A stretch of DNA of 64,000 bases. It comes from Bacilli bacterium (GTDB lineage: Bacteria > Bacillota_I > Bacilli_A > ML615J-28 > CAG-313). Location: contig CAADXH010000018.1 of the NCBI GenBank assembly GCA_900752975.1, positions 124,695 through 188,694 on the forward strand, read 5' to 3'. The notes under the pieces were generated by a model that saw only the letters and a list, made by a program, of their open reading frames with translations, ran no database searches and was not told the origin of the DNA. A program made the translations under genes and the position numbers. Within the stretch, counting starts at the first letter, position 1. Each line of letters starts with the position of its first letter. Positions 35,805 to 56,102 of this stretch are shown piece by piece.

Positions 35805-37841
35805 TTATGCTCCAATCTCCTTAGGCTTACTATACAAATAACCATCCTTAAGACTATTATAGATTTCAGTAAAGTTATTAAAATCAGACTTATCGAAATC
35901 AAATTTAGGTTGTTCAAATACAGACTTATCTCCACAAGCCATTGCATTAACAATCTTCAAATCTCGTTTATTTTTACAATTAATAAACAATCCACGATTA
36001 TCAACTTCTGGTTTTCTGGATACATCGTCAAAATCATGATACGTCAATATACCATTCGGTCGTCTTACTGTTGTGAAATACTCAATGATGTCATCATACA
36101 TTTCTTCATAACCAGCAAAATGGAACCAACGACTAAAGAATTCAATCCAGTTATGTGACTGTAAATCATCCATGAATTGAGCTTCTCTTCTCCATTTGAT
36201 TTCATCTCTATGAAATCTATTTTCAAATTCATATACCTTTTCTGGGATATTAACATGCCCAATCAATGTCGTCTGCGACATGTTAAATTCAGATGTGATT
36301 GATGGATACAAAGACTTATAATCAAAGTCATCCAGATTATTAAAGATAGATACTGGAATACCATTAATTCTCATCTTAGAATAATCACTATTATATTTCG
36401 GGTCTGCAACAAATGCACCTGGGAATTTTTCTTTCGGTGTATTCTGATTTGTATTATTACCCATAATCATTCCATATCTATAATATGACTTTGCTGCTCG
36501 ATTCTTAAGATATACAGTTTGACGATATATTTTTGACCAACGAGTATTGTCTAACAATACATTATTATATGCAGAGTCAATATCATTTACTTTAAACTCT
36601 ATACAATACTGTACAATTGTATCCATAATATTATAGAATACGAATGTTTCATAATCTTTATATGGTAATTCTGCAAGTTTCGTTGTAATATGACTATAAT
36701 CAAGTTTCTTTACACCACAAGTAATCTGTCCGATATAATCCAACTTATAATTCTCAATCGCTTTTTGTCCCTTTCGTCTAGACGCAAAATGAATCATCTG
36801 ATCAAGATACACCGAATATGAACTAATCTTTGCGAAGTCATTTCTTTCTTCATAATTAAACTTATTCTTCTCATCAATAAAGTAATTTACTTCTTTATAT
36901 CTGAAATCTGGATGACACATAATATCCTTTGGATTATATCCAAGATTGATAATTCGTTGGATGATATACGGAATATCGAATGCCATGTTCCATGCTAGCA
37001 CAGTATCTGGTTTGATATTGTTAATATAATTGAATAGGTGTTTTAATAAAACAATCTCATCTTCTTCATCATAGAAATGAAATTGAACAGTCATCTTATC
37101 AATCTTATACTTACAAGCTTGTTTCTCTCCACCAACCGCATCGATTAAGAATTGTCGTAATCGCATATTCAATGATGGTTTATTACATTCTTTTTCAAAT
37201 TTCTCAATCAATGGATTCTCTTTATTTCGTAATAAGAATGAATGAACAACCAAGGACTGATCATCAATAAATGATACTGCATTGATTGGACATTCACCAA
37301 GTTCTACGAATTCACCCTTACAATCAATTGTATCAGCTTCAATATCAAGAAATGATTTCGATGGTTTGGTATAACTATTCTCATATGAGTTCGCAAATTG
37401 AAACCTGATGTTATCTTCAATATCCATATCAGACATCAGGATCGCTGGGTTATAATTACATAACACTTTATTTGCAGCTCGATTCCGATTACGAATGTTT
37501 TCAAAGAACTCATTTGTTTTTCCTAATCGGTCTGCAATGTCTTTTTGAAGAGATATAAACGGCGTGATGATTCGTTTACAATCTTCTTTCATTGCATATT
37601 CCAAAGTATATCTTGGAACTTCTTTTCCATCAAGTAGCATATAATATTCATACTCAGGATTAATTATTGTTTCCAAAAACTTTTCACCTGACCGAATATC
37701 TTTGATAATCAAATCAATTGCCGGTGATAACCATTTCCCATTCGGATCTTTCTTTGGGTAATGGTAAATCGTGTTTAATAAAGATAACGGATATCCTTTT
37801 GGATATTGACCTATCAAAAAATCATCTTCGTAATATTTCAT
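35805..37841 (-). CDS. family B DNA polymerase, N-terminal part (3'-5' exonuclease domain + polymerase motif A)
   Basis: Exo I FLDIEAD; Exo II AWNMAFDIPY; motif A DFDYKSLYPSI. The ORF stops about 170 aa after motif A, and motifs B and C are absent. SD TAGGAGGC. Confidence 0.75.
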   Translation of the reverse strand: MKYYEDDFLIGQYPKGYPLSLLNTIYHYPKKDPNGKWLSPAIDLIIKDIRSGEKFLETIINPEYEYYMLLDGKEVPRYTLEYAMKEDCKRIITPFISLQKDIADRLGKTNEFFENIRNRNRAANKVLCNYNPAILMSDMDIEDNIRFQFANSYENSYTKPSKSFLDIEADTIDCKGEFVELGECPINAVSFIDDQSLVVHSFLLRNKENPLIEKFEKECNKPSLNMRLRQFLIDAVGGEKQACKYKIDKMTVQFHFYDEEDEIVLLKHLFNYINNIKPDTVLAWNMAFDIPYIIQRIINLGYNPKDIMCHPDFRYKEVNYFIDEKNKFNYEERNDFAKISSYSVYLDQMIHFASRRKGQKAIENYKLDYIGQITCGVKKLDYSHITTKLAELPYKDYETFVFYNIMDTIVQYCIEFKVNDIDSAYNNVLLDNTRWSKIYRQTVYLKNRAAKSYYRYGMIMGNNTNQNTPKEKFPGAFVADPKYNSDYSKMRINGIPVSIFNNLDDFDYKSLYPSITSEFNMSQTTLIGHVNIPEKVYEFENRFHRDEIKWRREAQFMDDLQSHNWIEFFSRWFHFAGYEEMYDDIIEYFTTVRRPNGILTYHDFDDVSRKPEVDNRGLFINCKNKRDLKIVNAMACGDKSVFEQPKFDFDKSDFNNFTEIYNSLKDGYLYSKPKEIGA

Positions 37842-38107
37842 ATTTAGCCTCCTAATCATCAACGAACGTAATACGTTCTTTCAATCTATTTATATATTTG
37901 TTTTCTCTGATGTAAAAGAAAAAATTATCTCCACAGAATGAACTGTGGAGATATCCAAATAAAATTAACAAGAGGAAAACAAACAAACTTCACAAGAGGA
38001 AAATCATGTCAACCAGATTTAAGGTCTTCCAACCTTATTTAAATGTTAACAAATATTAACGATTTATAAGAAAAACATCTCTATAAAATCACAAAGGAGG
38101 AAATAAC

Positions 38108-39055
38108 ATGGCTATCTTAAACGATGATGTTCTTAAACGAGGCTCTTCTAATAATACTACTTTATCTACTCAATCTACTACTTCTGATGAAACTCCATCA
38201 GAATCTACTCCACCGAAAAGAAAAAGAGGAAGACCTAGAAAAAGTGAACAACAATCAACCGAAGTTATTGAAATAACACCAAGTCATCATAAACAACAAT
38301 CTGACATTCCTATGTGTCAATCATCCGAACCATATGAAAACACTTATGATGAAACAAATAATATGCTTAAATACTCTATTATGCAATTGGATGTATTAGC
38401 AAATGATATTAAGAATGAACTTGATACAATTAGAAAATCTAAGACACTTAAGGGAAAATATCAGTTCATTTCTGATTTATGTTCTACTGCAAGTAACTTA
38501 GTAAGTTCTAAAATTTCTGCAATAAAGGAGATTAATGCTGTTAAGACAAATTGTCATAAGCTCGAATTACAGCGAGTTAAGGACATTAAGAACTCTGCAG
38601 CAAACCAACAAGATGATGATAAATTTATTACTGATATGTACAATGCTTATATTAATACTCCTGTAAATGCTGGCTCTAATCCAATGATGCAATATACATC
38701 TTCTAACATTGGTGGAAATATGAATGCATATATGAATGGAGTAAATACTTCTCAAGTTAATGAGGAACAAAATTTTCAAAACTATATGAGCAATCTATCT
38801 CCTGAACAAAACAGAATGATTTTGGGTGATAATCCTAATATTGAAACTGTTGTAGTGTATGATCCAAATACAGGAGAAAAGGCTTTTGAAGTAATTGATT
38901 CTAGTACAGGTCTATCTGTACCAAACTATCCTAGACCAAGTAATTCATTATTAGACGATACAAGTGTTGATATATCTACTGGTATTGCATCTAATACAAA
39001 TATTGGTCAGAGTTGGAAAGTTGTTGTTCTCGGAGATATGATAAATAAGTTCTAA
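38108..39055 (+). CDS. hypothetical protein with an AT-hook-like PKRKRGRPRK segment
   Basis: SD AAAGGAGGAAA; S/T-rich N-terminus then KRKRGRPRKSEQQ. Confidence 0.55.
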   Translation: MAILNDDVLKRGSSNNTTLSTQSTTSDETPSESTPPKRKRGRPRKSEQQSTEVIEITPSHHKQQSDIPMCQSSEPYENTYDETNNMLKYSIMQLDVLANDIKNELDTIRKSKTLKGKYQFISDLCSTASNLVSSKISAIKEINAVKTNCHKLELQRVKDIKNSAANQQDDDKFITDMYNAYINTPVNAGSNPMMQYTSSNIGGNMNAYMNGVNTSQVNEEQNFQNYMSNLSPEQNRMILGDNPNIETVVVYDPNTGEKAFEVIDSSTGLSVPNYPRPSNSLLDDTSVDISTGIASNTNIGQSWKVVVLGDMINKF

Positions 39056-39113
39056 TTATATACTATTATAATGATTACAATGTAATCAAATAAAAATAAA
39101 GGAGTTTTGAAAA

Positions 39114-39446
39114 ATGAACGGAATTGACAAAATTGGACAATGGTTCTTTGAAGATGAGAATCTTTGCAGAAAAGAACCAGTAATGTTATCAATGGGTGAA
39201 GAGTGTTATGTACTTGACCTTGACATCTTTGATGAGGTTAATGAAACTTACACATTTATTCCTTGTATTGTTGTAAGGATAGACCAATCTAGTATACCTG
39301 GTAGATGGTATTATGTATTACAGGCTAAGGACAGTGTAAATGACGAACAACTTAACTCGAACTATGATGCAGGTATAAGATTTTATAAATATTTGGAGAA
39401 TACATCTCCTTATCTTTATAAGATTAATCATGTAGAAGATAGATAA
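39114..39446 (+). CDS. hypothetical protein
   Basis: SD AAAGGAG; 110 aa. Confidence 0.5.
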   Translation: MNGIDKIGQWFFEDENLCRKEPVMLSMGEECYVLDLDIFDEVNETYTFIPCIVVRIDQSSIPGRWYYVLQAKDSVNDEQLNSNYDAGIRFYKYLENTSPYLYKINHVEDR

Positions 39447-39523
39447 ATGTATTATCTATAATTTAAAGAAAAAGAAGGATGAGTCGAAAGGCTCATTCTT
39501 TTTTGTAAGAAAAGGAGGTAACT

Positions 39524-40828
39524 ATGGCTTATAGAGAAATTAAGATTCAAGATGTTACTGTAGATACGCAATTGAATCGAAATATCACAGTAGCACCATT
39601 ACATCAAAGCTATGCATTGTGTGTAGAATATATGAAGCATTGGTTTCTTAAAAAGTTTGAAAAAGATTTCTTTTCTTGGATTCATATTGACGGTAGCCAT
39701 GTCTTTGGTGAGATTATGAAATATGATAAGAAGGCAATCATGTCTCATCTTAGTGACGATAAAGCTGCTCTAACAATTATACCAACGATTGACGATGATT
39801 ATAATAGAGACCGACTTGACCAAAATCTATTCGGACTTGACCAATTTATTAACACAACAAAGATTGATAAAGCTTTCTTTCAAGATCCAGTTAATAAAAA
39901 ATATATTATGATGCAAATGGATATGATGTTATTAAATTTCACTTACAGAGTAAAAGTTCCATCCAGAGCAATGCAACTAGATTTACAGAAATACATGAAG
40001 TTAGCATTTCGAACAAATCTATCTGAATCACAAGATGTTGATTTGGACTATGTAATGCCATATCCAATGATGCTATTTATGGCAAGAGATTTAGGATTTA
40101 AAATTAAAGATGATAGAATCTGTGAGCCAATAAAATTTCTAACTTATTTGAATAGTCGGTCTTATATTCCAATTACTTATAAGCGTTCGAATGTCAATGC
40201 TCGAGAAGAATACTTTGTTAGAGTAGACCATTTACCAGTACGTTTATTAATTAAAGACGTTACAAAAGATGATGGAAATAAATACGGTCATATTGCTGAT
40301 GACTTCAATATTGAAATGCAAGTAGAGGTTCGATTCCCATCTATGCAATTATACGTATACTTTACAAAAGAAGAATTTACAAGTATTTCTGTTGGTAAAG
40401 AAGCTTATAATATCGATAATACATTAATGATGTCATTGCATTATTATGATGACCCACCTGCTGTAAATGATCGTGGTTGGAAGTTAACAATTAATGCCCA
40501 ATGGGAAGAAGATAAACCTGGAGAAATCAATATTGATTTGAATGAATTATTTGATGGGGAGTTATCTCAGATTGCGAATTATCTTACATCTAAATTTATT
40601 TCTCCTAGTACCTTTATAGATGTACAGATATACAGTAATGGAATAAAACTAAAAGATGTTAATATTGATTGGGGAAGTATGAAACTCTCTGCATTTAATC
40701 CTACTGAAAAACTTGTATCAACCTTAGCAATTTATATTGACCTTGAATATCTAAATAGTGTAAGAGTAGAAAGTTACGGTAATAAGTCTAGTAAAGTTAT
40801 GCCCAGCGACCCTAATAGGTCTTACTAA
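39524..40828 (+). CDS. hypothetical protein
   Basis: SD AAAAGGAGGT; 434 aa. Confidence 0.6.
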   Translation: MAYREIKIQDVTVDTQLNRNITVAPLHQSYALCVEYMKHWFLKKFEKDFFSWIHIDGSHVFGEIMKYDKKAIMSHLSDDKAALTIIPTIDDDYNRDRLDQNLFGLDQFINTTKIDKAFFQDPVNKKYIMMQMDMMLLNFTYRVKVPSRAMQLDLQKYMKLAFRTNLSESQDVDLDYVMPYPMMLFMARDLGFKIKDDRICEPIKFLTYLNSRSYIPITYKRSNVNAREEYFVRVDHLPVRLLIKDVTKDDGNKYGHIADDFNIEMQVEVRFPSMQLYVYFTKEEFTSISVGKEAYNIDNTLMMSLHYYDDPPAVNDRGWKLTINAQWEEDKPGEINIDLNELFDGELSQIANYLTSKFISPSTFIDVQIYSNGIKLKDVNIDWGSMKLSAFNPTEKLVSTLAIYIDLEYLNSVRVESYGNKSSKVMPSDPNRSY

Positions 40829-40865
40829 GAACTTTATTATAAATTACTAAAAGGAGGTCGGTATA

Positions 40866-43457
40866 ATGCTTACATATGGTGATATAATTACACGTCAAAG
40901 AAATCTTCTATCCGGAGAACCAAAATGTAATATCAATGTTAATCAAGTATATGAATCATTAAAAGAAAACTATTCATACCAAAAAGCTAAACTTGTATTA
41001 GAAAATTGGACTGGATTTAAGAATGAAGATATTGCTATTGACAAAGTATTAGAAGTATTCACAATCATTGCAGATAATGACAATGATTCAAACATCAGAA
41101 ATGCTTCTAATATTATTGAAGGTAAAATTATCCCAAAATTACGTAATGCTAAGCAGACAAACAAACTGAATCATTATAAACGTGGTTGGATTAAACATAG
41201 ACATACAGCTATGCTTAATGATACAAAAGATAATGAAAATGCAGTTTCAAAAGCGAAAGCAAATGGTGGATATCTTGGAAATTCTCTACACCCAAATAGA
41301 AAATATAAACGGGATATTTATGGTCGTAAGATGGGAGAAGTCAAAAAATCAAATGGAGATGAGAATAAGCAGTCTGAATCAGATACTGAGAAAAAAGATG
41401 TTGCTACCGAGTGTTTCGATAGATTCATTCATATTGCATTTGTAAATGAACAATGTGACAGAGTTTTAACTAACCATTCTAAACTCACAAAACGATTTAA
41501 CCTTGATAATATGGTTAGAAAATGCCCATTAACAGAAGCAGCATTAAAGGATTGCGTGTATAATATCTGTGATTTAATCAATACATATGAATCTGCTTTT
41601 GGTGTAAGATATGATATTGCATTAGAAAATATCATGTATTTAATGTCAAAAAACTGTGTTCCTGTGGACAACAAATTTATTCTTGAAACGGTTACAGATT
41701 ATTTTTTAATGACTGAGCTTAATGAAGAAACTGCAGATGCAAAACTTCATGATATGATTTATATTATAGAAAATTCTAAATTCTTTAGTCCAGAAGAATT
41801 AAGTATTGTATCTTATCTTTATGAAGATGAACAAGCCATTATCGAAGCAGTAGAGAATGAAGAAGATATTGAACAGATTCCTTTGGAAGAAAACAAAGTT
41901 CATGATATGTTCATGAAATATAAGAAAAAGAAAATAGTTACAATCAAGAAAAAGAACAAGTTAGAATCATTAAAAATCAAAAAGATTATTCATGACTTTA
42001 AGAAAGAACACAATAAATCGATTGAAAAGTTTAAGATTGCAATTTCTAGAATCTTTGTAAATAGTCCAGAAGGAATTATCAATGAACTTCCTGATATCTT
42101 TGAATTTGTAAGACTTGGTATTGTTCTAGGTGGATTTGCTATTAATCCTATTCTAGGTATTATTACATTAATTACTGGATTCTTTTTAAGAATGAAAGTA
42201 GCAAGAGAAAGAATGGAAAAAGTATGTGAACAATACGAAAAAGAACGTGATCGTTATAAGAAGAAAATGAATGAAACTGATGATGAAAAGAAGAAAGAAA
42301 AATACAAGGCTCTATATAATCAATATAAGAATGATTTATATAAATTAGAAAGTTATAGAGATGATCTATATACAGAGGCAGAAAATGATAAACGTATGGA
42401 AGAGAAATATGCAAAAGAAGCTGAAGCAAGTAGTGATGATTTCAACTTTGATATAGATTTTAATTTCGATGAACAAGCTGCTATTAATTATACCGAATTA
42501 CTCTCCACTTTATATGAACAATTGTCTTATACAAGAGGAGATTTAATGGTAGCGATTTCTAATAATATCAAGGATATGGATAGTGATGATATCTATAATA
42601 TAACTGAAGCTATAAAAGTTTGTAATGATATAGTAGATTGTCCAAGATATATCACAATTCTTGAAAATGAATTAGAACGAGTAAGAAATAATAAACAATC
42701 CTCTTTCATAGCATCTCTCCAAAAAATTGATACAATCAAAACTTGTATCTCTGATATCAATAGTGTAAAGTACAATAGCCTATTAGAAACAGCATATATA
42801 TCTAATGATACTGACTTACCGGATATAGAAACTGTATATGAAACAATGAAATATAAATATGATATTATTGATGATATAATTGATTATATAGCAGAATCAA
42901 AAGACGAAAAATCTGGGATGTCATTCTTAAGTAAAGTAAAAATTGCAGGGGAAAACTTAAGACGTTCTATGCTAAAAGCAAAGGATAAAGATAAGCAACT
43001 TAGTATGAAGTTAGATAGTGAATTGAATCGAACAATGAAATCTGCTAAGAAAGCAATGATTAGTGATAGTAGAGAAAGCATTATTCGAGGTTCTTTTTTA
43101 CCTTCTGCTTCTAAATGTATCCACCTTGCACTTGCAAGTGGAGTAGTTGCATTGTTTAGTCCTGTTGCAGCTGTAGTTGCATTGATTGGCTTTATTGGTT
43201 CATCTAAAGTATTAACTGAAAAAGAACGTAATCTTATACTAGATGATATTGATATAGAAATCAAAATGTGTGATAAATATCTTAAAGCTGCCGAAGATAA
43301 AGATGACTTAGTTGCAGTAAGAGAAATTATGAAAACAAAACGTGACTTAGAAAGACAACGTGCTAGAATTCTTTATAACAAGAATTATATCTTTAAAGGA
43401 AAGAAGCAGTATGATATGCCAGATAAGTCTAGAAAAAAGAACAATGATGATGATTGA
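40866..43457 (+). CDS. large coiled-coil protein with two hydrophobic Gly/Ala-rich segments
   Basis: GIVLGGFAINPILGIITLITGFFL and LALASGVVALFSPVAAVVALIGFIGSS; K/E-rich heptad-like stretches. Confidence 0.55.
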   Translation: MLTYGDIITRQRNLLSGEPKCNINVNQVYESLKENYSYQKAKLVLENWTGFKNEDIAIDKVLEVFTIIADNDNDSNIRNASNIIEGKIIPKLRNAKQTNKLNHYKRGWIKHRHTAMLNDTKDNENAVSKAKANGGYLGNSLHPNRKYKRDIYGRKMGEVKKSNGDENKQSESDTEKKDVATECFDRFIHIAFVNEQCDRVLTNHSKLTKRFNLDNMVRKCPLTEAALKDCVYNICDLINTYESAFGVRYDIALENIMYLMSKNCVPVDNKFILETVTDYFLMTELNEETADAKLHDMIYIIENSKFFSPEELSIVSYLYEDEQAIIEAVENEEDIEQIPLEENKVHDMFMKYKKKKIVTIKKKNKLESLKIKKIIHDFKKEHNKSIEKFKIAISRIFVNSPEGIINELPDIFEFVRLGIVLGGFAINPILGIITLITGFFLRMKVARERMEKVCEQYEKERDRYKKKMNETDDEKKKEKYKALYNQYKNDLYKLESYRDDLYTEAENDKRMEEKYAKEAEASSDDFNFDIDFNFDEQAAINYTELLSTLYEQLSYTRGDLMVAISNNIKDMDSDDIYNITEAIKVCNDIVDCPRYITILENELERVRNNKQSSFIASLQKIDTIKTCISDINSVKYNSLLETAYISNDTDLPDIETVYETMKYKYDIIDDIIDYIAESKDEKSGMSFLSKVKIAGENLRRSMLKAKDKDKQLSMKLDSELNRTMKSAKKAMISDSRESIIRGSFLPSASKCIHLALASGVVALFSPVAAVVALIGFIGSSKVLTEKERNLILDDIDIEIKMCDKYLKAAEDKDDLVAVREIMKTKRDLERQRARILYNKNYIFKGKKQYDMPDKSRKKNNDDD

Positions 43458-43471
43458 TGGAGGTGATAAGA

Positions 43472-44491: not shown

Positions 44492-44627
44492 ATTTATTAA
44501 TGGAATATCATAACAATATAATAAAATAGTGAAGAAAATATGTTGCTTACACTATTATTTTTTAATAACAGCAATTATCATCTCTAAACATTTATAAAAT
44601 TAATATTCCAAAAGGAGGATACTAAAT

Positions 44628-46658
44628 ATGCCAGTAATCGGTAATACAACAAGCCGTAAACCTGGTTCGTCCGGTTATTCGCACGACCCAATGGCGGCTT
44701 ATGCTAAAGAATTTTTGAATCTTACCCAATCTTTCCTTGAAGAAGCAAGATTGGATTTATATCAAGAACCTTTTAAGGTTTTTAGAACTCCGTTGACAGA
44801 TGAAACTGTAAAGAATTTCTTTATGGAAAATTCTGCTGACCCTCGTGGCATGACAACTGAAGAATATGAAGACCACATGCTTATGATGGAACAGATGTAT
44901 GAAAATGATAAGATAGCTGTTCTTGAACACTGTGGTATGGGTCAGTATAACCCAGTTATCGGTATGACTTTCCCAATTCATAAGAACATTATGCTTAATA
45001 ATATCTTTGATAAGGGTGCTATTCCGAAGTTTGTTGCTGAAGCACCAAGATTCACCGTTTCTATGGAAACAAGATGGATGATTGATCCTGAAACTGGTGA
45101 AAAGATCGATATGTGGAGAGAACAATACAAGATGACCGATGCTATTGATAAAGCAGCACCGTTGAAGTCTATGTATTTGCCACTTCCTGAAGCAGAAAAC
45201 ACTAATATTCTGGAAACTATGTTCGGCGTACCGGAAGATCAGAATAACAATCTTTCTATCGAATCTCATGTTTCTGGTCTAGTTGGTGCAAGAGTTGTAT
45301 ATCCAGGTCAGACCGTTCAAATCGTTGTTAAGAATTCTGATGCTGCTACTGCTCCTGCAACTGTTACTTACACAATCCAGAATTACACAAACACTACAGC
45401 ACAAGCATATGTAATTCCTACTGATTCTCCAACTGATTTAAAGGCTCAGCTTCCTAAGGTAGAAGCTACAGTAACACAGACTGTAACTGGTGCTATCTTT
45501 AATTGGAGAGGTCCGTTCGCTCCAGCTTACGGTGGTTATGACCGTCAGATTTGTGAACAGTATGCTCTTCCGATTGTAAAGACTGTAGCTGCTGGTACTC
45601 TTCCAGGTACTTGGAAGTTGACTGTAGAATTGGCAGATGGTACTACTCAAGAAATTGATAATACCACTGATGAAAATGCAATTCCAGGTCAGTACAGAAC
45701 TGTAGGTTTCGTTTCTGGTTTTGCTAAGGATAATAGATTTGGTATGACATCTTCTAATGCTAAGGTTGCAGGTGTTATCCTAACTTCTAGAATTGATACT
45801 TCTTCTGCAATGCTGAAAACTGCATCTGCTACTTGGAGTGTTCGTACTGATATCATCGAAATTCCGAATGCAGTTCCAATGAATGTAACTATCAGCCCTG
45901 AAGAAGTTAAGGATATTGCAGCTCTGTATCAGATTAACCAGTTGACTAAGGTTATGTCTTTGATGAAGATTTCTTTGGCTAACTATAAAGATGATAAGAT
46001 TAGAAGATATCTGGATAAGAGCTTCTTGGAAATGCCAGATGATTCTAAGATTGCACGTCAGTTTGACTTTGCTCCGTCTAACAACTATGCTTTGGATCCG
46101 ATTGAATGGCGTCATAAGACCTTTATGGATAGTCTTGATACTCATGCTACTCAGTTGCTCCATGTATTGAATGACCCGAACGTTACATTCAATATCATTG
46201 GTCGTGATGACTTGATTAGAAAGATTACTCCTACTGATTATACATATCAGTCTCCGTCTTCTATTGGTCCAGTTCAGCTTGACTTTGTTAAGACAATCGT
46301 TACATCTGATAAGAGAACTTACCAGTTCATTAGTTCTGATAAGCTCCGTGATTGTAACAACCTGATGATTATTGTTTGCCCGAGAAACTCTGAAAGATTC
46401 ATTTATCGTATTTATGATTATCAGATGTATTTGAGCAATGAAATCAGAAATATTTCTAACCCAGCACTGCCAGCTGTACATGCATTTGAACGTTGGGTTG
46501 TTAAGGAATATCAGCCGGTTCAGGGACGTATCCGCATCTTGAACCCGACTGGCCTGCGTAACTATGGTACAGATTATGCATTTAACAATGACCCGACTGG
46601 TCGTGGTGATGGTGTAAGAAGCATTGGTAAGAACGATTTCAATATCGATGCTATCTAA
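44628..46658 (+). CDS. candidate major capsid protein / abundant virion protein
   Basis: Very strong SD AAAAGGAGGA. Codon choice is biased to GGT/GCT/CGT/ACT. Followed by a strong terminator. 676 aa. The assignment to capsid is an inference from expression-type signals only. Confidence 0.35.
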   Translation: MPVIGNTTSRKPGSSGYSHDPMAAYAKEFLNLTQSFLEEARLDLYQEPFKVFRTPLTDETVKNFFMENSADPRGMTTEEYEDHMLMMEQMYENDKIAVLEHCGMGQYNPVIGMTFPIHKNIMLNNIFDKGAIPKFVAEAPRFTVSMETRWMIDPETGEKIDMWREQYKMTDAIDKAAPLKSMYLPLPEAENTNILETMFGVPEDQNNNLSIESHVSGLVGARVVYPGQTVQIVVKNSDAATAPATVTYTIQNYTNTTAQAYVIPTDSPTDLKAQLPKVEATVTQTVTGAIFNWRGPFAPAYGGYDRQICEQYALPIVKTVAAGTLPGTWKLTVELADGTTQEIDNTTDENAIPGQYRTVGFVSGFAKDNRFGMTSSNAKVAGVILTSRIDTSSAMLKTASATWSVRTDIIEIPNAVPMNVTISPEEVKDIAALYQINQLTKVMSLMKISLANYKDDKIRRYLDKSFLEMPDDSKIARQFDFAPSNNYALDPIEWRHKTFMDSLDTHATQLLHVLNDPNVTFNIIGRDDLIRKITPTDYTYQSPSSIGPVQLDFVKTIVTSDKRTYQFISSDKLRDCNNLMIIVCPRNSERFIYRIYDYQMYLSNEIRNISNPALPAVHAFERWVVKEYQPVQGRIRILNPTGLRNYGTDYAFNNDPTGRGDGVRSIGKNDFNIDAI

Positions 46659-46694
46659 GTGATTTTTAATTCATATTAATTCAGTCTTTATATT

Positions 46695-46729
46695 CGCCTA
46701 GTGTCTTGATTAGGCACTAGGCGTTTTTA
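46695..46729 (+). terminator. rho-independent terminator
   Basis: CGCCTAGTG-loop-CACTAGGCG hairpin followed by TTTTTAT. Confidence 0.75.
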
Positions 46730-46750
46730 TAAGTGAGAAAGGAGGATAAC

Positions 46751-47959: not shown

Positions 47960-47967
47960 CAAAAAAA

Positions 47968-48030
47968 ACAACTACATTCTGAGAACATAGTTGCTTTTCG
48001 GTAAAGGATACTGGAATCCAGTATCCTTAT
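47968..48030. terminator. terminator region between convergent genes (two hairpins)
   Basis: CAACTA..TAGTTG followed by CTTTTCGG, and AAGGATACTGG-AATC-CAGTATCCTT. Confidence 0.4.
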
Positions 48031-48042
48031 ACCTTTACAATT

Positions 48043-48555: not shown

Positions 48556-48575
48556 AATAAAACCCTCCTGTAGGT

Positions 48576-48611
48576 CAAACAAAAATTTAGAGGATAACTC
48601 ACGTTATCCTC
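48576..48611 (-). terminator. rho-independent terminator
   Basis: GAGGATAAC-TCAC-GTTATCCTC hairpin followed by a T-run on the minus strand. Confidence 0.6.
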
Positions 48612-48651
48612 TTCGTACACATCAATAATATACAATACAAATATTATTTGG

Positions 48652-49362: not shown

Positions 49363-49398
49363 ATTACCACCACCTTTTCATAAATGTAAAGTCTGGTA

Positions 49399-50949
49399 TT
49401 ACCACCAGACTTTATTTCCATTTTCATCCATCCTTTCAAATGGCATTCCACCATGATTTATTAATCTGTTATACATCACGTTAAAAGCTGTATTCTTCAA
49501 TTGTCTCACTGTGAATACAATCTCTTTCGTATCTAATGCATACTTGTCAAACATTGGTAGAGACTTCTTGTAGTAATTATAGATTGGTTTTACAGAAGTA
49601 TCAACCAAATCTATATAGAAAGAATTGTATTGTCTCGTTCTACCAAATCGTTGTTGATTCTGTGGTAATGACTTTGTTGGTTCTGCCATATTAACACAAA
49701 CCATAAGATCACTAATATCTAAGCATGCTCCAGCAGACTTAGAAGTGGTTAAAATGATTGTATTATTCTTAGCAGATTCTTTATCAGGATTGATAGAGGT
49801 ATATATGCCAATATCATCTGCATACTCAGAATAATTATATCGCAACCAATTATAAAAGAATACAATAGAATTGTTTGTAGAAAAGAAGAATAGCTTCTTT
49901 CCTGGAATCTTACTAATCATATCAAGTACGATTCTAGCAATATAGTCAAAGTTTTCTTTCATAACAAGGAAGTCACAATAAGTCATCTTATTAAACCCAT
50001 GTGTTGTTAAACAACTTGATAATTCATTGTTCGAGATGCCACTTTTATACAACATTGCAATATAATGCGTATGTGGGTCTGATTCTGGGTCAAATAAAGA
50101 TAGCATTGGGACATTGCAGAAGTAATTCTTATAGATTCGATTCTGTGCATCATCACCTCTTGACGGAGTTGCTGACAGGTACAGAGTCTTATAGACTGGA
50201 GAAGCATAATCTATATTACAGATATTCTCAAAATTTAGATGTGCTTCATCTATAATCTTAAGTCCAATTCCCAAAGTCTGAAATAACTCATCGATACGTT
50301 CCCAGCTATTATTGCTTGCATAAGATAATAGTGTATCATGAGTTACCATATACACTTTATACTTATCTTGATTAAATCTTTGAGATAGTATTTTATCAAT
50401 CATCTTAGAACCAGATATAAATAATATCTCAGAAGATATTACATTGGTGTGATAAAGATAACTATCTTTCCATTGATTCAACCATCCGACTGAATTTGTT
50501 ATAATAACTGTCTTTACATTCAACAATGCAGAGTAAACAATTCCTAAATATGTTTTACCTGCACCTGTATTCAATGCCAAAAACAATTGATTATATTTTT
50601 TCGTATAACTATATTCTCCCTTACCAGATAAGAACTTAAGTGCTAACTCTTGTTTCTCATCTTTTGGTGGGAACTTAATCAATATCTGATTAGAATTTGT
50701 TGCTGGTTTGTTATATTTGTTATCATAAAAAGCATAACTACCAACAAGTCTTTCAACCTTTTTGATATCGATTCCTCTCGGAATTGTATAAGTCTTTTCT
50801 TGACGGTTATATACACTTCCGATTGTTTTAAACCTGAAATAAGCTTTATCCCATAAATCAAACATTTTCTCTAACTCTGGGATATCATTTTGCTTATAGT
50901 TGTTAATCACGATTTTGTTATGATAAACAACAATCTTACGGTTATCCAT
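49399..50949 (-). CDS. SF2 DNA/RNA helicase (DEAH-type)
   Basis: Motif I LNTGAGKT; motif II IIDEAH; motif III SATP; motif VI QQRFGRTRQ. SD TAGGAGCG. Confidence 0.7.
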   Translation of the reverse strand: MDNRKIVVYHNKIVINNYKQNDIPELEKMFDLWDKAYFRFKTIGSVYNRQEKTYTIPRGIDIKKVERLVGSYAFYDNKYNKPATNSNQILIKFPPKDEKQELALKFLSGKGEYSYTKKYNQLFLALNTGAGKTYLGIVYSALLNVKTVIITNSVGWLNQWKDSYLYHTNVISSEILFISGSKMIDKILSQRFNQDKYKVYMVTHDTLLSYASNNSWERIDELFQTLGIGLKIIDEAHLNFENICNIDYASPVYKTLYLSATPSRGDDAQNRIYKNYFCNVPMLSLFDPESDPHTHYIAMLYKSGISNNELSSCLTTHGFNKMTYCDFLVMKENFDYIARIVLDMISKIPGKKLFFFSTNNSIVFFYNWLRYNYSEYADDIGIYTSINPDKESAKNNTIILTTSKSAGACLDISDLMVCVNMAEPTKSLPQNQQRFGRTRQYNSFYIDLVDTSVKPIYNYYKKSLPMFDKYALDTKEIVFTVRQLKNTAFNVMYNRLINHGGMPFERMDENGNKVWW

Positions 50950-50961
50950 ATAATATCACGC

Positions 50962-51003
50962 TCCTATATAAAACAGGACTACTCCCAAATAGAGAGTAGT
51001 CCC
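50962..51003 (-). terminator. rho-independent terminator
   Basis: GGACTACTC-loop-GAGTAGTCC hairpin followed by TGTTTTATATA on the minus strand. Confidence 0.6.
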
Positions 51004-51010
51004 GAAATTT

Positions 51011-53227
51011 TTAATCACCCATATACTTAAACAACTCATCTGATGTTCCCTGAGATTGAACAACTGGTTCATTCGCAAGGAACTTCTGTGGCTGTACCAT
51101 ATACAGCAAATCATATCCTGAAGGTTCATGCTTCTTGAAACTCAATGGTGAATATAACATTCTAGCAATATCCTCAGATTGAAGAGATATAGAAATACTT
51201 GGGTGGGTAGCAACTGCTTTCTTCAATGTGAGAATCTTATATTTCTGATTATCAGGAATTGACCAATCTGGAACTTCAATAATATTATCAATCGAACGAA
51301 GCTGATTCATAATAATTACTTCCAGATGAACACTCATGATATTATCAAGACCAATATCATTCAGCTTATTACTCAATGTTTCCAAGAATGTTTCAGCTGT
51401 ATAATTATCTGTATTTGCCTTGAGATTGATAATATTGATAACAGCTTGAAGTCTTTCAGACATATCATCATTATGAATATTATTCAAGTCGAACAAAGGA
51501 TAATCAGAACCAATAATATTGTTTACTGGAATAATGATATCTTCATCTACTGTATTAATATTCTTAAGTTTCAGATATTCCAAAAGCCAATCACTCAACT
51601 GGAAGTTATCAAGGTTTGATGAACGAATTGGATAATCTTCTCCAGTAGATTCATTTCTAAGATAAAATACATTTACATACTTTATCACATCTTCAAAACT
51701 TGTATCTACGTCATCATCGTTTTCGTCGTTTTCTACAGAAGCGAATATTTCTTCCTGAATGTCTCCTTCTCTGATGACAAACTTCCATTTCTTTCCATCT
51801 CTGAATTCCGGATTAATATAAATTGTACCGTCATCTAATGTGATAAGACGTTCAATTTGTTCCTTCGGAAGTACAGTTGTATCAAAGGTCACTTCATTAA
51901 TCTTAGCTTCAAGAAGATGTTTTGCAGATAGCATCATCTGAGTCAATGGTTCAGTAAGATTCGTTACACTATAAATACCAATGTTTACAGCTGGTATAAT
52001 ATTGTATAACTCGCCCATACATTTTCTACAAATACCAAGTCCCATTGCTGCTGATTTACACTTGATTGGGCTTCTAAGATATATCTCTTGTCCAATAAGA
52101 TCAGAATTCTTCTTTACGATATTATATACATCGCTTGTCCGATATTCCATTCCTCTTGGGTTGGTACGATAGTATCTATCTGCAATCTTTCTCAATGCAG
52201 TTTCATCCGTAACTTTATATTTCAAGAAGTTACGAGTTCCACAATCAAAATACGGGTCGATTGTATTCGTATACGGTTTTGTATACTTCTTTGTTCTAGA
52301 ACAATTCAATATCATAATTCTACTAAACTGTCCAGAACGAGCAGTATTTTTCTTTGACAGAATCTGTGCAATTCTAGCAATCAAAGATTCAAGAATATGA
52401 AATGCAACATTATTAGCACCACCGCTAATATAATTCGTGTCTACTACATATGGGAAAATACTACCTTCCCCATTCGGTTTGACACCAATATTAATATACA
52501 TTTCACGAGCTTGTTTTGGTTTGACGCCTTCTTTTGCTCTAAAGGCATCTGATAGACAATGGTCTCTACCGATATACTGTTTCGCATTAACGATATAATC
52601 AATTAATCGATTCATATCTTTTAATGCTTCTGCGTTCATCTGTTCTGGTGGAAACTGAGAATAATAATGATTCTTATGTCTATCCATGATTTCTTTAAAT
52701 CCTGGACAATTGTTATACATAAGAATGAAATCTTCATTGTTAATGGAGTTGTTGAAGAACCACGCAAATCCATCTACAAACTTAAGATTTCTCAAAGTAT
52801 CATAGATAATGCGATTCAAATTATGAATAATCATAATGTTATTGTCTTTACCACAACGTTCTCTTGTTGGGATAATCGCAAAATTATCAATATACTTTTT
52901 GATATAGCTGTTAGTAATACCAGCCTTATTGAAGAAAACATGATATGGTTTAATTCTTTGACCGGTCTTAATAACAAACTGCCACACAATAATGTTTATG
53001 AGAGCATATGCTAGTGGTAAAATAACTATCATATTGTTCTCAAATACAAATTGTATCTTTGTATTTTGTACTCTCGGAACCTCAATGTAATCCAAGAATA
53101 CATCCTTCAAATCTTTCACATAATCATCAATGGTTTCTTCATTAATATCAATCGTATTGATTGAAATGGGATTGCCATTAATGACTGGTGTAAACACACC
53201 ATAGTCGTACACTGCGAGTGCGTTCAT
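51011..53227 (-). CDS. multisubunit RNA polymerase beta-prime subunit, C-terminal fragment (contains the trigger-loop region)
   Basis: YLRSPIKCKSAAMGLGICRKCMGE resembles beta-prime VRSVVSC...GVCAHCYGRD. SVTNLTEPLTQMMLSAKH resembles the trigger-loop GEPGTQLTMRTFH. SD TAGGAGGT. Confidence 0.6.
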   Translation of the reverse strand: MNALAVYDYGVFTPVINGNPISINTIDINEETIDDYVKDLKDVFLDYIEVPRVQNTKIQFVFENNMIVILPLAYALINIIVWQFVIKTGQRIKPYHVFFNKAGITNSYIKKYIDNFAIIPTRERCGKDNNIMIIHNLNRIIYDTLRNLKFVDGFAWFFNNSINNEDFILMYNNCPGFKEIMDRHKNHYYSQFPPEQMNAEALKDMNRLIDYIVNAKQYIGRDHCLSDAFRAKEGVKPKQAREMYINIGVKPNGEGSIFPYVVDTNYISGGANNVAFHILESLIARIAQILSKKNTARSGQFSRIMILNCSRTKKYTKPYTNTIDPYFDCGTRNFLKYKVTDETALRKIADRYYRTNPRGMEYRTSDVYNIVKKNSDLIGQEIYLRSPIKCKSAAMGLGICRKCMGELYNIIPAVNIGIYSVTNLTEPLTQMMLSAKHLLEAKINEVTFDTTVLPKEQIERLITLDDGTIYINPEFRDGKKWKFVIREGDIQEEIFASVENDENDDDVDTSFEDVIKYVNVFYLRNESTGEDYPIRSSNLDNFQLSDWLLEYLKLKNINTVDEDIIIPVNNIIGSDYPLFDLNNIHNDDMSERLQAVINIINLKANTDNYTAETFLETLSNKLNDIGLDNIMSVHLEVIIMNQLRSIDNIIEVPDWSIPDNQKYKILTLKKAVATHPSISISLQSEDIARMLYSPLSFKKHEPSGYDLLYMVQPQKFLANEPVVQSQGTSDELFKYMGD

Positions 53228-53310
53228 AATTTTCTACCTCCTATAAAATACATTCTTTATAGTAATAGTTTTCGGGCGAGTCAAATCCTATTACTATCTT
53301 AATAGTATAC

Positions 53311-53352
53311 AGAAGAAAAAGAAATTGGTCAGTAGAACAATCTACTGACCAA
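53311..53352 (-). terminator. rho-independent terminator
   Basis: TTGGTCAGTAGA-loop-TCTACTGACCAA hairpin followed by a T-run on the minus strand. Confidence 0.65.
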
Positions 53353-53363
53353 CTTTTGTTAAC

Positions 53364-53822
53364 TTAGTGACGAGTTTTACTCATTTCTCTAGGCTGCAGT
53401 TTAGGGGTGTTTACATGTTTCTGACCCTGTCCAGAAACATACATACGCTGACCCTGTCTAGCAACGATCTGAGCCTTATTTGCATACTTCTTCTTAATAG
53501 CAGCAAGTAACTTACGTTCTTGAATACGATTCTTTACAAGCTTATTCCAAAGAGCATCATGATTGTCTTTAGCTAACTGTAAAGCAGCCATACCAGTACG
53601 ACGAGTCAAATCATCATTCTTATTCAACTTTACAATTGTTCTACGACTAATCTTCTTTGCTTCCATAAGTACATCTGCTTCTTCCAAAAGTTCACGCTTT
53701 TCAGAATCAGAATCTGCGTAATGATCATCATAGAAGAATGCTTCTTGCAATTCATCCATGTTTAAAGAAACTTGTGTTTCTCTCAAATCCTGAGAGAGTC
53801 TTTCATTTGTATAAAGTCCCAT
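53364..53822 (-). CDS. basic hypothetical protein
   Basis: SD AAAGGAGGAT; K/R-rich C-terminal half. Confidence 0.55.
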   Translation of the reverse strand: MGLYTNERLSQDLRETQVSLNMDELQEAFFYDDHYADSDSEKRELLEEADVLMEAKKISRRTIVKLNKNDDLTRRTGMAALQLAKDNHDALWNKLVKNRIQERKLLAAIKKKYANKAQIVARQGQRMYVSGQGQKHVNTPKLQPREMSKTRH

Positions 53823-54002
53823 AGGATATATCCTCCTTTAAAAAAAATAAAATTTAATTGCAATTAAAGTTTATTATATTTTGCATACTAATCCCAGTCT
53901 TTTATATAATTGTTATGTTTTTAAAGCATGAATAACAATCTGATAAATAATTAATAAGATTACGTATTACGTAGTCTGAGAGAATATTGGAGGTAATTAA
54001 AA

Positions 54003-56102
54003 ATGGATATCACACAAATGGTTAACAGTCCGACAGTAGATATATATAAGAATGAGATGTTGGATGCTCTGAAACTATCATTTCCTGGTTTGACAGAATT
54101 TGATTTGAGAGAAGCAATCGATTATTCTATTGTAAAGAGAGGTAAGGATAGTAAAGCATATCTAGATAATAACTACAAAAAAGTAAGGGAAAAGAGAACT
54201 CTGTTTGAGATTACAGATTATATCATTCAAAGAGAACCGATTATTACAGTATCTGGTGTTATGTTTAAGAAACATGGTTCTTGTCCAAACCCATTCGTAA
54301 GATTAATTCAAGAGTTCTTGGAACAAAGAGGAATCTATAAAAAAACAATGTTCAAGTATCCGAAAGGTTCAGAAGAATTTGAAAAGTATAATATTCTTCA
54401 ACTTTCGGAAAAAGTTTCTGGTAATGCAATGTATGGTGCATCTGGTAATCATACAAGTGTCTTCTATAATCTTTATGTAGCAAGAAGCATTACAATGCAA
54501 GGTAGAAGTTGTATTGCAGCTGCTATTATGCTGTTTGAAGCTACAATGGCAAATAATGTAAAACTTCTCAGTTTAAACGATGTTGTTACATTTATCAATA
54601 ATGTAAGAAGAGAACCAATTGGAAAATATCCTGATGAGATTATTCTTGATAAAGATAAGTATGTGACAGCAGAAGAATGTTTCTTTAAAATCTTATACAG
54701 TTGTGGATTCTATTGGATTCCAACTGAAAAAGAAATGACTCTGATTTGGGATATTATTAATCAATGTAGTCAGCATGAGTTGAACAAATTGTTTTATAAA
54801 AACAATCTATTCTGGTTTGTAGATAATAGCGTCGTAATGAATAAAATTTTAAGTATTTTGTCTACTCTTGATGCACCATTTATTGACCCGAATGAACCAC
54901 CGGAATCTATCAAAGGAATGATGGATGAATTATATGATATGATATTTGAATGGGTTTATTATGATAAACAGTATATGGATAGAATCGATAGAACTGAGAA
55001 TATGTATCGTTGCGTATCTATGCTTACAGATACAGATAGTTGTTTCATTTCATTTGATGGATGGTATCGTTATATTCTAGATAAAACATTCAATATTCCA
55101 ATGAAGATTAAAGAACTTGAAATCGAAGAAAAAACTGGTGAAATAAAAGAAGCTTTTGATATTTCATATGACTATGATTTCTATACAGATGAAATTATTG
55201 AAAGTCAGAACATTATTAGACCTGACGTTATCACACCTCAAGTAGGATTCCGTTGTAGTATTATCAATATTCTTGCTAGTATTATGGGGAAACTTGCAAT
55301 TGACTATATGGGTAAGTATTCTGATAACTCTAATTCTACAACTTGTTATGACGGTTCAAAGCGTAAGAGTTTCTTCATTCTTAAGAATGAGTTTCAACTT
55401 AAACGTGCTCTTATTACGGATGGTAAAAAGAACTATTGTGCATATCAAGAAAGACAAGAATCTAATATCATCCCAAAAGAAAAAGCATTATCAATTACAG
55501 GTATGCCGATTAAAAAAGTTGGTGTTCCGGAATCTACTAAGATTAGATTACAGAGAATTTTACTCGACCAAGTACTTGATAATCCTGGAGAAATCTCTCA
55601 AGTAGAAATTGTAAAGCAACTAGCTGTGTTGGAAAAACAAATCATTGAAGCAATCGAAAATGGTAGTAAGGATTATTTCAAGCCTGAAAGAATTAAAGCA
55701 TTCAGTGCATATGATACTCCGATGAGAGAATCTGGTATTAAAGCATCTGTTGCATTTAATTTCTTGAAAGATGATAATATGGAAGCAATTGACCTAGACC
55801 AAAGAAACAGTATTCTAAATATCAAAGTAAACATTGACAAAAAGAATGTTGATGGGTTGAAAGAAAAGTATCCACAGATTTATGAAAAAGCGGTAGAGCT
55901 GATGACTACAAAAAAAGAATTCGCTAAGGGAATTACAGGTATTGCAATTCTTGATAATATGCAAGTTCCGGAATGGGTAAAAGATTATATTGATTATGCA
56001 ACAATTGTAAATGATAATCTTCGTTCATTCCCATGTGAAGCATTAGGTATAGACCGTATTGAAAATAAGTATATAAACTATACGAATATTTTGAAGTTCT
56101 AA
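54003..56102 (+). CDS. family B DNA polymerase, C-terminal part (motifs B, C, KKxY; palm/fingers/thumb)
   Basis: Motif B KVSGNAMYG; motif C LTDTDSCFISF; KKxY region GKKNYCAYQ. SD TTGGAGGT. Begins about 130 aa before motif B and has no exonuclease domain or motif A. Confidence 0.75.
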   Translation: MDITQMVNSPTVDIYKNEMLDALKLSFPGLTEFDLREAIDYSIVKRGKDSKAYLDNNYKKVREKRTLFEITDYIIQREPIITVSGVMFKKHGSCPNPFVRLIQEFLEQRGIYKKTMFKYPKGSEEFEKYNILQLSEKVSGNAMYGASGNHTSVFYNLYVARSITMQGRSCIAAAIMLFEATMANNVKLLSLNDVVTFINNVRREPIGKYPDEIILDKDKYVTAEECFFKILYSCGFYWIPTEKEMTLIWDIINQCSQHELNKLFYKNNLFWFVDNSVVMNKILSILSTLDAPFIDPNEPPESIKGMMDELYDMIFEWVYYDKQYMDRIDRTENMYRCVSMLTDTDSCFISFDGWYRYILDKTFNIPMKIKELEIEEKTGEIKEAFDISYDYDFYTDEIIESQNIIRPDVITPQVGFRCSIINILASIMGKLAIDYMGKYSDNSNSTTCYDGSKRKSFFILKNEFQLKRALITDGKKNYCAYQERQESNIIPKEKALSITGMPIKKVGVPESTKIRLQRILLDQVLDNPGEISQVEIVKQLAVLEKQIIEAIENGSKDYFKPERIKAFSAYDTPMRESGIKASVAFNFLKDDNMEAIDLDQRNSILNIKVNIDKKNVDGLKEKYPQIYEKAVELMTTKKEFAKGITGIAILDNMQVPEWVKDYIDYATIVNDNLRSFPCEALGIDRIENKYINYTNILKF

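Follow-up and report, generated by a model that had tools for sequence, protein, structure and literature searches.

A predicted family B DNA polymerase encoded by two unlinked genes with matched leaders in a phiKZ/AR9-like jumbo phage

The locus under study raises the question of whether two genes located 16.2 kb apart on opposite strands, each resembling a different part of a family B DNA polymerase (PolB), together encode a single enzyme. Both ORFs, referred to as N-half and C-half, were found at the coordinates and on the strands given in a preliminary description of the window (that is, the whole 64-kb stretch of DNA analysed), and profile matches agree with the capsid, helicase and RNA polymerase (RNAP) genes that it had placed between them, namely those for the major head protein, a helicase and an RNAP beta-like subunit (Table 1). 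By its sequence, the window belongs to a jumbo phage of the phiKZ/AR9 kind, whose multisubunit RNAPs are split; contigs related to it span 210-250 kb. The explanation that very probably holds is that two unlinked genes each contribute one polypeptide to the replicative PolB, as the outcome of an old fission and with no splicing.

Table 1. Position of the two PolB genes, their leader elements and neighbouring features in the window.
Feature	Position	Strand	Description
PolB N-half	35805-37841	-	678 aa; ORF and profile matches
N-half Shine-Dalgarno	37848-37853	-	AGGAGG
N-half leader palindrome	37864-37878	-	GAACGTATTACGTTC; core ACGTATTACGT at 37866-37876
N-half promoter-like site	37891-37902	-	AACAAATATATA; AACA-N6-TA match, 61 nt before ATG
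Terminator-like hairpin	37926-37953	-	Lies before the promoter-like site of the N-half
207-aa ORF	35178-35801	-	Abuts the N-half
Terminator-like hairpin	35143-35171		Scored on both strands; closes the unit of N-half and 207-aa ORF
PolB C-half	54003-56102	+	699 aa; ORF and profile matches
C-half Shine-Dalgarno	53989-53993	+	GGAGG
C-half leader palindrome	53958-53976	+	GATTACGTATTACGTAGTC; core ACGTATTACGT at 53962-53972
C-half promoter-like site	53934-53945	+	AACAATCTGATA; AACA-N6-TA match, 69 nt before ATG
Hairpin	56110-56138		AGAAGAATGGA...TCCATTCTTCT; between C-half and convergent gene 56150-56698
Major head protein	44628-46658		phiKZ-type capsid context
RNAP beta-like ORF	12101-13711
RNAP beta-like ORF	18918-20735
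RNAP beta-like ORF	51011-53227

The N-half is composed of an N-terminal domain, a 3'-5' exonuclease with Exo I (D166-I-E168), Exo II (N285..F288-D289) and Exo III (Y403..D407), which have the form proper to family B exonucleases (DxE, NxxxFD and YxxxD, respectively), and a first palm segment with motif A (D505-F-D507-Y-K-S-L-Y512-P-S). The residues of these four motifs are invariant in an alignment of 54 homologues, the invariant motif A positions across the N-half family being D505, D507, Y512 and P513. The best profile family is phrog_3011 (1e-54); residues 106-436 of RB69 gp43, including the exonuclease domain, align to the N-half, and D507 aligns to RB69 D411. A PDB sequence search with this protein returned no matches. 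The AF2 model of the N-half alone matches the fold of RB69 gp43 (E 3e-15) and is confident throughout, except for the piece of the palm core carrying motif A (497-528). The protein had been described as stopping right after motif A; it continues for about 160 residues more, and the part beyond the motif A palm consists of helices followed by a tail of about 90 residues kept solely among close relatives. The start codon is the ATG at 37841, 6 nt downstream of AGGAGG, a TTG at 37862 being a less likely alternative start.

The C-half shows a structured head (residues 1-77), fingers, a helical insert, motif C, the KKxY motif and a thumb (the PF20286 region). The first finger helix carries R109 and K113, motif B reads K137-VSG-N141-AMY-G145, motif C D343-T-D345-S (343-346) and KKxY K475-K476-N-Y478 (475-478), all of these residues being invariant in an alignment of 49 homologues. 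Hence, the motifs attributed to each gene at the outset (Exo I, Exo II and motif A to the N-half; B, C and KKxY to the C-half) were all located. Motif B is preceded by 136 residues, with the whole fingers domain included, and not by the short stretch assumed when the C-half was said to start just upstream of it. The best profile family is phrog_2927 (2e-55), and in Pfam the C-half matches PF20286 and PF00136, the latter being matched by the N-half as well. Residues 556-659 of RB69 gp43 align to the C-half, and the sole match of the PDB sequence search was that of residues 95-175 with the fingers of a poxvirus polymerase. The AF2 model of the C-half alone is confident throughout except for motif C (331-345) and KKxY (456-500), and gives weak Foldseek matches at best (E 0.02).

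The two proteins complement each other. Of the 856 positions of phrog_262, the N-half accounts for 109-439 and the C-half for 438-560, in agreement with the idea that they are the two parts of one PolB. The full set of polymerase motifs, i.e., A (DxxSLYPS), B (KxxxNSxYG), C (DTDS) and KKxY, is reached solely by both proteins together, and its distribution places the break between motifs A and B, as already proposed. Since D507 resides on the N-half and D343/D345 on the C-half, the two must associate in trans, as had also been anticipated. The composite active site and the conservation of the halves suggest that they do associate physically and that the complex is active, and the window is predicted to encode one PolB as two separate, independently translated genes.

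The comparison with relatives harboring an intact polB, recommended in the preliminary description, maps the break. Two unsplit homologues were found: P0348 (1224 aa), whose residues 25-554 align to the N-half and 612-1224 to the C-half, and P0371 (1276 aa), with a similar alignment pattern. They share family and domain order with the window's proteins, at 27-31% identity, which makes them as near as AR9, but each is a single ORF, unlike the two genes of the window. Judging from these alignments, the break corresponds to a linker of about 30-60 residues (P0348 555-611) and would fall past the palm part that bears motif A and ahead of the fingers; from residue 9-15 on, the C-half head aligns to internal parts of the unsplit proteins. 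Mapped in this way, the break provides natural constructs for studying the assembly of a palm from two chains. Unsplit homologues of the split PolB are rare, and P0371 sits on a phage contig carrying a Cpn60 gene.

At E<=1e-10, 1317 homologues of the N-half and 688 of the C-half were retrieved; among those listed, the complete ones measure about 630-704 aa and 690-793 aa, respectively, while shorter entries are fragments or intron exons. Because these metagenomic families are large and of constant length, with invariant catalytic residues, neither half is a pseudogene, a possibility that the preliminary description had itself named as an objection. Both halves are under purifying selection, and the divergence within the family reaches 27-31% identity with the active-site residues still invariant. 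Fifteen metagenomic relatives carry both halves on a single contig; in these, the two genes lie 16-200 kb from each other, on one strand or on opposite strands, and are never adjacent (0/15). The fission is old and stable, and it tolerates any order of the genes.

It might be supposed that the two halves work independently, the N-half being a lone proofreading exonuclease or a relic and the C-half polymerising alone or with another partner. Such a mode of action has been proposed for the divergent phiKZ-type PolBs lacking a fused exonuclease (Iyer et al.), a family that the C-half matches in its thumb region (PF20286). However, the C-half has no equivalent of motif A, the invariance of D505, D507, Y512 and P513 in the N-half would be unexpected if its exonuclease alone were important, and the unsplit homologues join both parts in the canonical order, so that independence of the halves appears unlikely.

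It is very unlikely that an intact DNA polymerase encoded elsewhere is the real replicase, with the split enzyme being accessory or decaying. More than one polymerase is present in some jumbo phages (PMC7824862), and the window represents 64 kb out of the roughly 215 kb of the genome; against this stand the strong conservation of both halves and their invariant active site, and the single locus per half that tblastn detected when run on complete genomes (AR9, PBS1 and the Staphylococcus phages). An additional intact polB had been indicated as a possible objection from the beginning, and no second PolB or further PolB-like ORF was found in the window, where the only other PolB-like trace is a KKxY-like tail of 40 aa on an unrelated ORF. 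A 338-aa ORF (5417-6433) was considered as a truncated PolB paralogue and rejected, its homology being limited to the last 41 residues.

A rejoining of the halves into a single polypeptide, through a trans-splicing intron or a split intein, is highly improbable. In Nanoarchaeum equitans, PolB is encoded in pieces that are rejoined by an intein, and in Methanothermobacter the PolB break lies after motif B, hence at a site different from that of the window. A split-intein PolB has also been proposed for jumbo phage MIJ3 (with PA5oct) (PMC6892783), and group I introns are known in the split PolB family. Unlike the MIJ3 and Nanoarchaeum pieces, those of the window show no intein: neither broken end bears intein, Hint, LAGLIDADG or HNH domains (Pfam, E<=0.1) or intein N-terminal or C-terminal (HN + C/S/T) blocks, and the C-half head contains no intein-C-like sequence. 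An Rfam search of the window revealed no intron, and no intron or homing-endonuclease gene lies at the break, either in the window or among the mapped introns of relatives. These group I introns target motif A (507|508) and motif B (~142|144, i.e., ~143), away from the break. Moreover, both genes possess a Shine-Dalgarno sequence, a start and a stop of their own, and the tail of the N-half is conserved as coding sequence. The designation of the break as the classic intein/split site is unsupported. The 530-aa "short C-halves" P0230 and P0233 were rejected as evidence of a three-piece polymerase; each is a second exon, preceded by an insertion at the site in motif B that is occupied by a group I intron in related C-halves. 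This insertion has no Rfam match, and the contigs end inside it.

That an assembly artefact or an inversion broke up one contiguous gene can practically be dismissed: the window does come from a metagenomic assembly, but the split recurs in independent assemblies by the dozen, as well as in the finished genomes of cultured phages, and each half has, besides its translation signals, a promoter-like site.

According to the two-polypeptide explanation, the N-half would contribute its N-terminal domain, the exonuclease for proofreading and the strand of the palm with the motif A aspartate, whereas the fingers, the thumb, the motif C aspartates and the KKxY block for primer binding would come from the C-half; an active site for polymerisation would exist solely in the non-covalent heterodimer, and neither protein nor RNA splicing would be involved. 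The break would be the outcome of an old gene fission in the linker joining the motif A part of the palm to the fingers, after which the two genes would have come to occupy positions and strands that differ from one lineage to another.

The novelty implied by the preliminary description was overstated, the split being annotated in AR9, PBS1, phiR1-37 and Staphylococcus jumbo phages and already mentioned in the literature (PMC5312081). The finding does not overturn current understanding; the window adds a distant, uncultured branch to the known jumbo phages with a two-subunit PolB, and fits the AR9/PBS1 type in its non-adjacent ORFs, family-specific profiles and jumbo phage context. The best database matches are gp132 and gp152 of AR9/PBS1 (Takahashivirus), with 31% and 27% identity (tblastn); the AR9 products are annotated as "DnaQ-like exonuclease and partial catalytic domain" and "catalytic subunit", with the same break point, and both are "continuously expressed" (PMC5312081). 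AR9 is a jumbo phage with split multisubunit RNAPs as well, its two genes are about 15 kb apart, its N-half gene is followed by a small gene and the portal gene as in the window, and its two leaders likewise resemble each other. On the other hand, the AR9 halves lie on the same strand, gp132 (554 aa) lacks the C-terminal tail of about 90 residues, and the sequences are very diverged. In Yersinia phage phiR1-37, the halves (g170 and g167) are on opposite strands and divergent, as in the window, but only 1.7 kb apart and with a shorter C-half (420 aa). The Staphylococcus jumbo phages (S6, MarsHill, Madawaska and PALS_2) carry the two genes some 20 kb from each other, under the annotations "DNA polymerase exonuclease subunit" and "catalytic subunit", with 24-28% identity to the window's proteins and, in some of them, extra insertions that fragment the C-half match. 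The experimental precedent for the assembly of a phage PolB in trans is the split gp43 of Aeromonas phages 25 and 44RR, since the two polypeptides 43A and 43B of phage 25 co-purify and are active (PMC2988022). These are adjacent cistrons of the T4 clade, with an untranslated spacer or a seg homing-endonuclease gene between them; the halves of the window are unlinked and their similarity to the T4 clade is remote (E ~1e-10), so they are not of this type.

The promoter-like sites of both genes match AACA-N6-TA, the consensus of AR9 late (non-virion RNAP) promoters (PMC5312081), which is about 5-fold enriched in gene leaders (14/44), and both genes would share this promoter class. The terminator-like hairpin that precedes the N-half promoter-like site is predicted to separate the N-half transcription unit from upstream reading on the minus strand. 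The claim that each gene has its own Shine-Dalgarno sequence and terminator holds for the former, whereas the N-half has no terminator of its own, the first terminator-like hairpin past it lying downstream of the 207-aa ORF. The hairpin following the C-half has a better T-run on the opposite strand and is probably a terminator for the C-half and the convergent gene alike.

The matched pair of leaders is the new point relative to the known PolB split. The palindromes GAACGTATTACGTTC (N-half) and GATTACGTATTACGTAGTC (C-half) end 22 and 26 nt before the ATG and are centred 30 and 36 nt upstream of it, respectively, and their exact 11-mer core ACGTATTACGT occurs only ahead of the two halves, in the 64-kb window as in the 119-kb contig. 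The two leaders are reciprocal best matches among the 55 gene leaders of the window. Since k-mer sharing over the whole 8-kb locus is dominated by chance (>130 shared 10-mers in AT-rich DNA) and hence uninformative, the shared-sequence test was restricted to leaders; the N-half and C-half leaders of the same genome resemble each other significantly (p<=0.005) in the window itself, AR9, Ga0307249 and two members of a second clade. In the second clade, 43 nt of the two leaders are identical within a genome and the element is present in exactly two copies per genome (3/3 genomes); the matched pair appears to be replaced by a different one in other lineages. The palindrome shows covariation; one of its pairs is broken in several C-half leaders of the window's own clade, the shared element is missing in 10 of the 15 metagenomic contig pairs, and in phiR1-37 no element common to both leaders was detected. 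The folding energies of the leader hairpins are unremarkable (z-scores -1.4 and -2.6), for which reason a stable RNA structure is not claimed.

The presence, in several lineages, of a lineage-specific palindrome common to both leaders and absent from the rest of the available sequence of those genomes suggests coordinated control, and the matched element in the unusually long leaders would coordinate the expression of the two halves. The element may act as an operator, at the DNA or the RNA level, or reflect a common context of transcription start. That it is a dedicated common operator keeping the halves in step, possibly bound by the assembled polymerase, is put forward tentatively and is on balance doubtful. 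By analogy, it could mediate autogenous translational repression as in T4/RB69 gp43, whose operator is a hairpin tens of nucleotides upstream of the start codon, beside the ribosome-binding site (PMC3014915); the placement is similar and there is no sequence similarity, and an operator in the window would serve two mRNAs, unlike that of gp43. If true, it would represent a cis-regulatory solution to the stoichiometry problem posed by gene fission; in any case, the matched elements lend themselves to experiments on how a phage keeps both parts of an essential enzyme in balance.

As for the 207-aa ORF, the N-half stop codon (35805-35807) lies three bases from its ATG (35801), and it is probably co-transcribed with the N-half because it abuts that stop codon. 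No similarity was found for it by Pfam, PHROG or direct comparison with AR9 g131 (DnaQ-like), and a role as exonuclease was not assigned. A gene of similar size is also located downstream of the N-half in relatives and in AR9 (g131).

Both ORFs on which the preliminary description based a family B DNA polymerase (PolB) encoded by two genes are present, and profile searches assign complementary parts of one polymerase to the two products, referred to here as the N-half (exonuclease domains and motif A) and the C-half (fingers, motifs B and C, KKxY, thumb). Along PHROG 262 (856 positions), positions 109-439 are covered by the N-half and 438-560 by the C-half; each half also has a separate dedicated PHROG (3011 at 1e-54 for the N-half, 2927 at 2e-55 for the C-half). 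In Pfam, PF00136 is matched by both halves and the C-half thumb matches PF20286 ("divergent family B DNA polymerase"). The N-half profile corresponds to residues 106-436 of RB69 gp43; this range takes in the exonuclease as well as the D411-bearing palm strand, D411 being aligned with D507 of the N-half. The alignment of the C-half to RB69 gp43 begins at residue 556, in the region of K560 of motif B, and residues 95-175 of the C-half match poxvirus polymerase finger helices. On the basis of these alignments, the break falls between the fingers and the preceding palm segment with motif A.

Coordinates of the two polymerase genes and of the other features discussed in the text
Feature	Position	Strand	Remarks
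N-half	35805-37841	-	678 aa; best start ATG 37841; AGGAGG 6 nt upstream
C-half	54003-56102	+	699 aa; GGAGG 9 nt upstream
Palindrome before N-half	37864-37878	-	
Palindrome before C-half	53958-53976	+	
207-aa ORF	35178-35801	-	
Terminator-like hairpin	35143-35171		nearest past the N-half
KKxY block of C-half	55350-55469	+	residues 450-489
Giant ORF	~56,940-64,000	+	>2,360 codons; runs off window end
338-aa ORF	5417-6433	-	no Pfam or PHROG family
Tail of 338-aa ORF	5417-5539	-	
ORF adjacent to 338-aa ORF	6499-7422		
Near-identical sequences	6434-6480, 7423-7470	-	

The possibility that one of the halves is a pseudogene was checked and neither is degenerate, the catalytic motifs being kept across homologues. 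In the protein database, 1317 homologues of the N-half and 688 of the C-half were found at E<=1e-10; among the matches listed, the complete ones measure ~630-704 and ~690-793 aa, respectively. When 54 N-half and 49 C-half sequences (identity down to 47%) were aligned, Exo I, Exo II, Exo III and motif A (D505, D507, Y512, P513) were invariant in the former, and motif B (K137, N141, G145) and motif C (D343-T-D345-S) in the latter; in the KKxY motif, Y478 is invariant and K475 and K476 are nearly so (>=90%).

The break had also been described as the classic intein/split site, an idea that finds no support. No signal of intein, Hint, LAGLIDADG or HNH was detected in either half, and an Rfam scan of the window gave zero matches. 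Group I introns or intron-sized insertions of 0.3-1.2 kb do interrupt the halves of some relatives (loci L026, L149, L041, L056, L140, L151, L157 and L163), with RF00028 matched in L026 (4461-4828) and L149 (3374-3728). All the mapped insertions fall either at N-half 507|508, inside motif A (DFD|YKSLYPS), or at C-half ~142|144, inside motif B and before YG; hence, the break is not at the sites used by the mobile elements of this PolB family. Several independent contigs (L167-L169, carrying the C-half-family protein P0233) come from a C-half interrupted at the motif B intron site and end a few hundred bases before its second exon, which explains why protein databases contain seemingly "short" C-halves of 530 aa.

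Unsplit homologues are represented by two of the best 150 cluster representatives in an exhaustive HMMER search. In P0348 (1224 aa), residues 25-554 correspond to N-half 22-575 and residues 612-1224 to C-half 41-699; P0371 (1276 aa) is encoded on a 68-kb phage contig with Cpn60. Relative to them, the break maps to a linker of ~30-60 residues (555-611 in P0348), and the comparison shows the head of the C-half (residues 1-77) to be ordinary polymerase sequence, with no added docking domain; the last ~90 residues of the N-half in the window (about 592-678) are conserved in close relatives only. In the 15 metagenomic contigs harboring both halves, these are 16 kb to ~200 kb apart and adjacent in none; the pair is convergent or same-strand in some contigs and divergent in others, as it is in the window and its close relatives. 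The local synteny of each half is kept better than their mutual arrangement: in relatives, the N-half is followed by a small ORF and then by the portal gene, and a small, divergent virion-protein gene lies upstream of the C-half. Just past the C-half region of the window a giant ORF begins, whose equivalent in a relative (L167) has a product of >4,000 aa with a phage lysozyme domain.

Among the products encoded in the window are several split RNAP beta-like subunits, together with virion proteins and a head protein of the phiKZ type; the IMG/VR contig UViG_3300045988_117817 matches its sequence, and complete relatives measure ~215-250 kb. For both halves, the best GenBank phage matches are Bacillus AR9/PBS1, Bacillus BpSp, Staphylococcus jumbo phages and Yersinia phiR1-37. 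In AR9/PBS1 the two polymerase genes are 15 kb apart on one strand; in the Staphylococcus phages, genes labelled "exonuclease subunit" and "catalytic subunit" are ~20 kb apart; in phiR1-37, 1.7 kb separates g170 from g167, which lie on opposite strands. In the transcriptome study of AR9, gp152 and gp132 are both given as polymerase proteins with continuous expression (PMC5312081), and assembly in trans of a naturally split phage PolB has been demonstrated for gp43A/43B of Aeromonas phage 25 (PMC2988022). Given the same split in these phages and this precedent, the PolB of the window is a distant example (27-31% identity) of an already known kind. As modelled by AF2 (pLDDT 80.5), the N-half matched RB69 gp43 at E 3e-15, and the only long low-confidence stretches in the single-chain models are palm-core pieces (motif A 497-528 in the N-half; motif C 331-345 and KKxY 456-500 in the C-half), as would be expected of a palm sheet needing strands from both chains. 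The PolB of the window is a genuine and conserved two-gene enzyme whose active site is composite and which most likely works as a heterodimer, a reading that we consider very probable.

The terminator that had been attributed to the N-half gene itself is absent: the 207-aa ORF follows directly, abutting its stop codon. Same-sized counterparts exist in Ga0307249 (202 aa) and AR9 (g131); no family was detected for the 207-aa ORF, nor any similarity to AR9 g131. It may represent a further polymerase-associated subunit.

A new side observation concerns regulation. When the AR9 late-promoter consensus AACA-N6-TA was applied to the gene leaders of the window, it was matched ahead of both polymerase genes and, window-wide, in 14 of 44 leaders versus 2.6 expected (~5-fold enriched; e.g., gene starts 10647, 20717, 34455 and 38108), which suggests that the non-virion RNAP of this phage recognises the same motif as that of AR9. 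The motif lies 61 nt (N-half) and 69 nt (C-half) from the ATG, other leaders usually having 25-38 nt. The extra leader holds the palindrome ACGTATTACGT, centred 30 nt (N-half) and 36 nt (C-half) before the start codons. Its exact 11-mer has no third site in the 64-kb window, the 119-kb contig contains a longer form of it at just two sites, one in each polymerase leader, and the two leaders are reciprocal best matches among 55 in the window; the pairing is thus not due to chance.

Other lineages have matched pairs of their own, with different sequences. In two genomes of a clade at ~55% identity, 43-47 nt are common to both leaders (p<=0.0005), and in three genomes of up to 232 kb the element of this clade has just two copies per genome, each of them ahead of an N-half or a C-half. 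In Ga0307249, GCC(C)TATTTAGGG precedes both halves, with no other site in the 44 kb examined, and the leaders of AR9 g132 and g152 resemble each other (p=0.0045). This is not a general rule: of the 15 metagenomic contig pairs, 10 show no leader similarity, and neither does phiR1-37. Within the clade of the window, both-side changes affect 3/6 pairs of the palindrome, and its covariation score is 0.278 versus 0.154 in shuffles (reached by 2/500); several C-half copies carry a mismatch and folding energies are ordinary. From these sequence comparisons, we read the palindrome as a real, lineage-restricted, shared putative cis element, which may act either as DNA or as RNA, the latter in the manner of the T4/RB69 gp43 operator, a hairpin lying ~40 nt before the start codon (PMC3014915). 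The matched leaders are the part of the case worth an experiment.

A KKxY-like sequence is also found on the 338-aa ORF, which ends in ...ILKNEFQLKHAILTDDKKIYPAYQERQESNI*. As protein, its tail shares 68% identity with the KKxY block of the C-half over 40 aa; at the nucleotide level, identity is ~88% over ~95 nt, including perfect stretches of 26 and 27 nt. The four homologues of this ORF in related phages are fast-evolving elsewhere (46-76% identity), the tail being kept in all, with the same stop point. In UViG_3300045988_117817 (L170) the N-half is 100% identical to that of the window versus only 76% for the 338-aa ORF; either the window derives from a sister genome, or the 338-aa gene is a mosaic hypervariable spot. 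The near-identical sequences (...GACGTTAAAACACAGATTGGAGAATTATT) just upstream of this ORF and of the adjacent one suggest either tandem duplication or a common leader.
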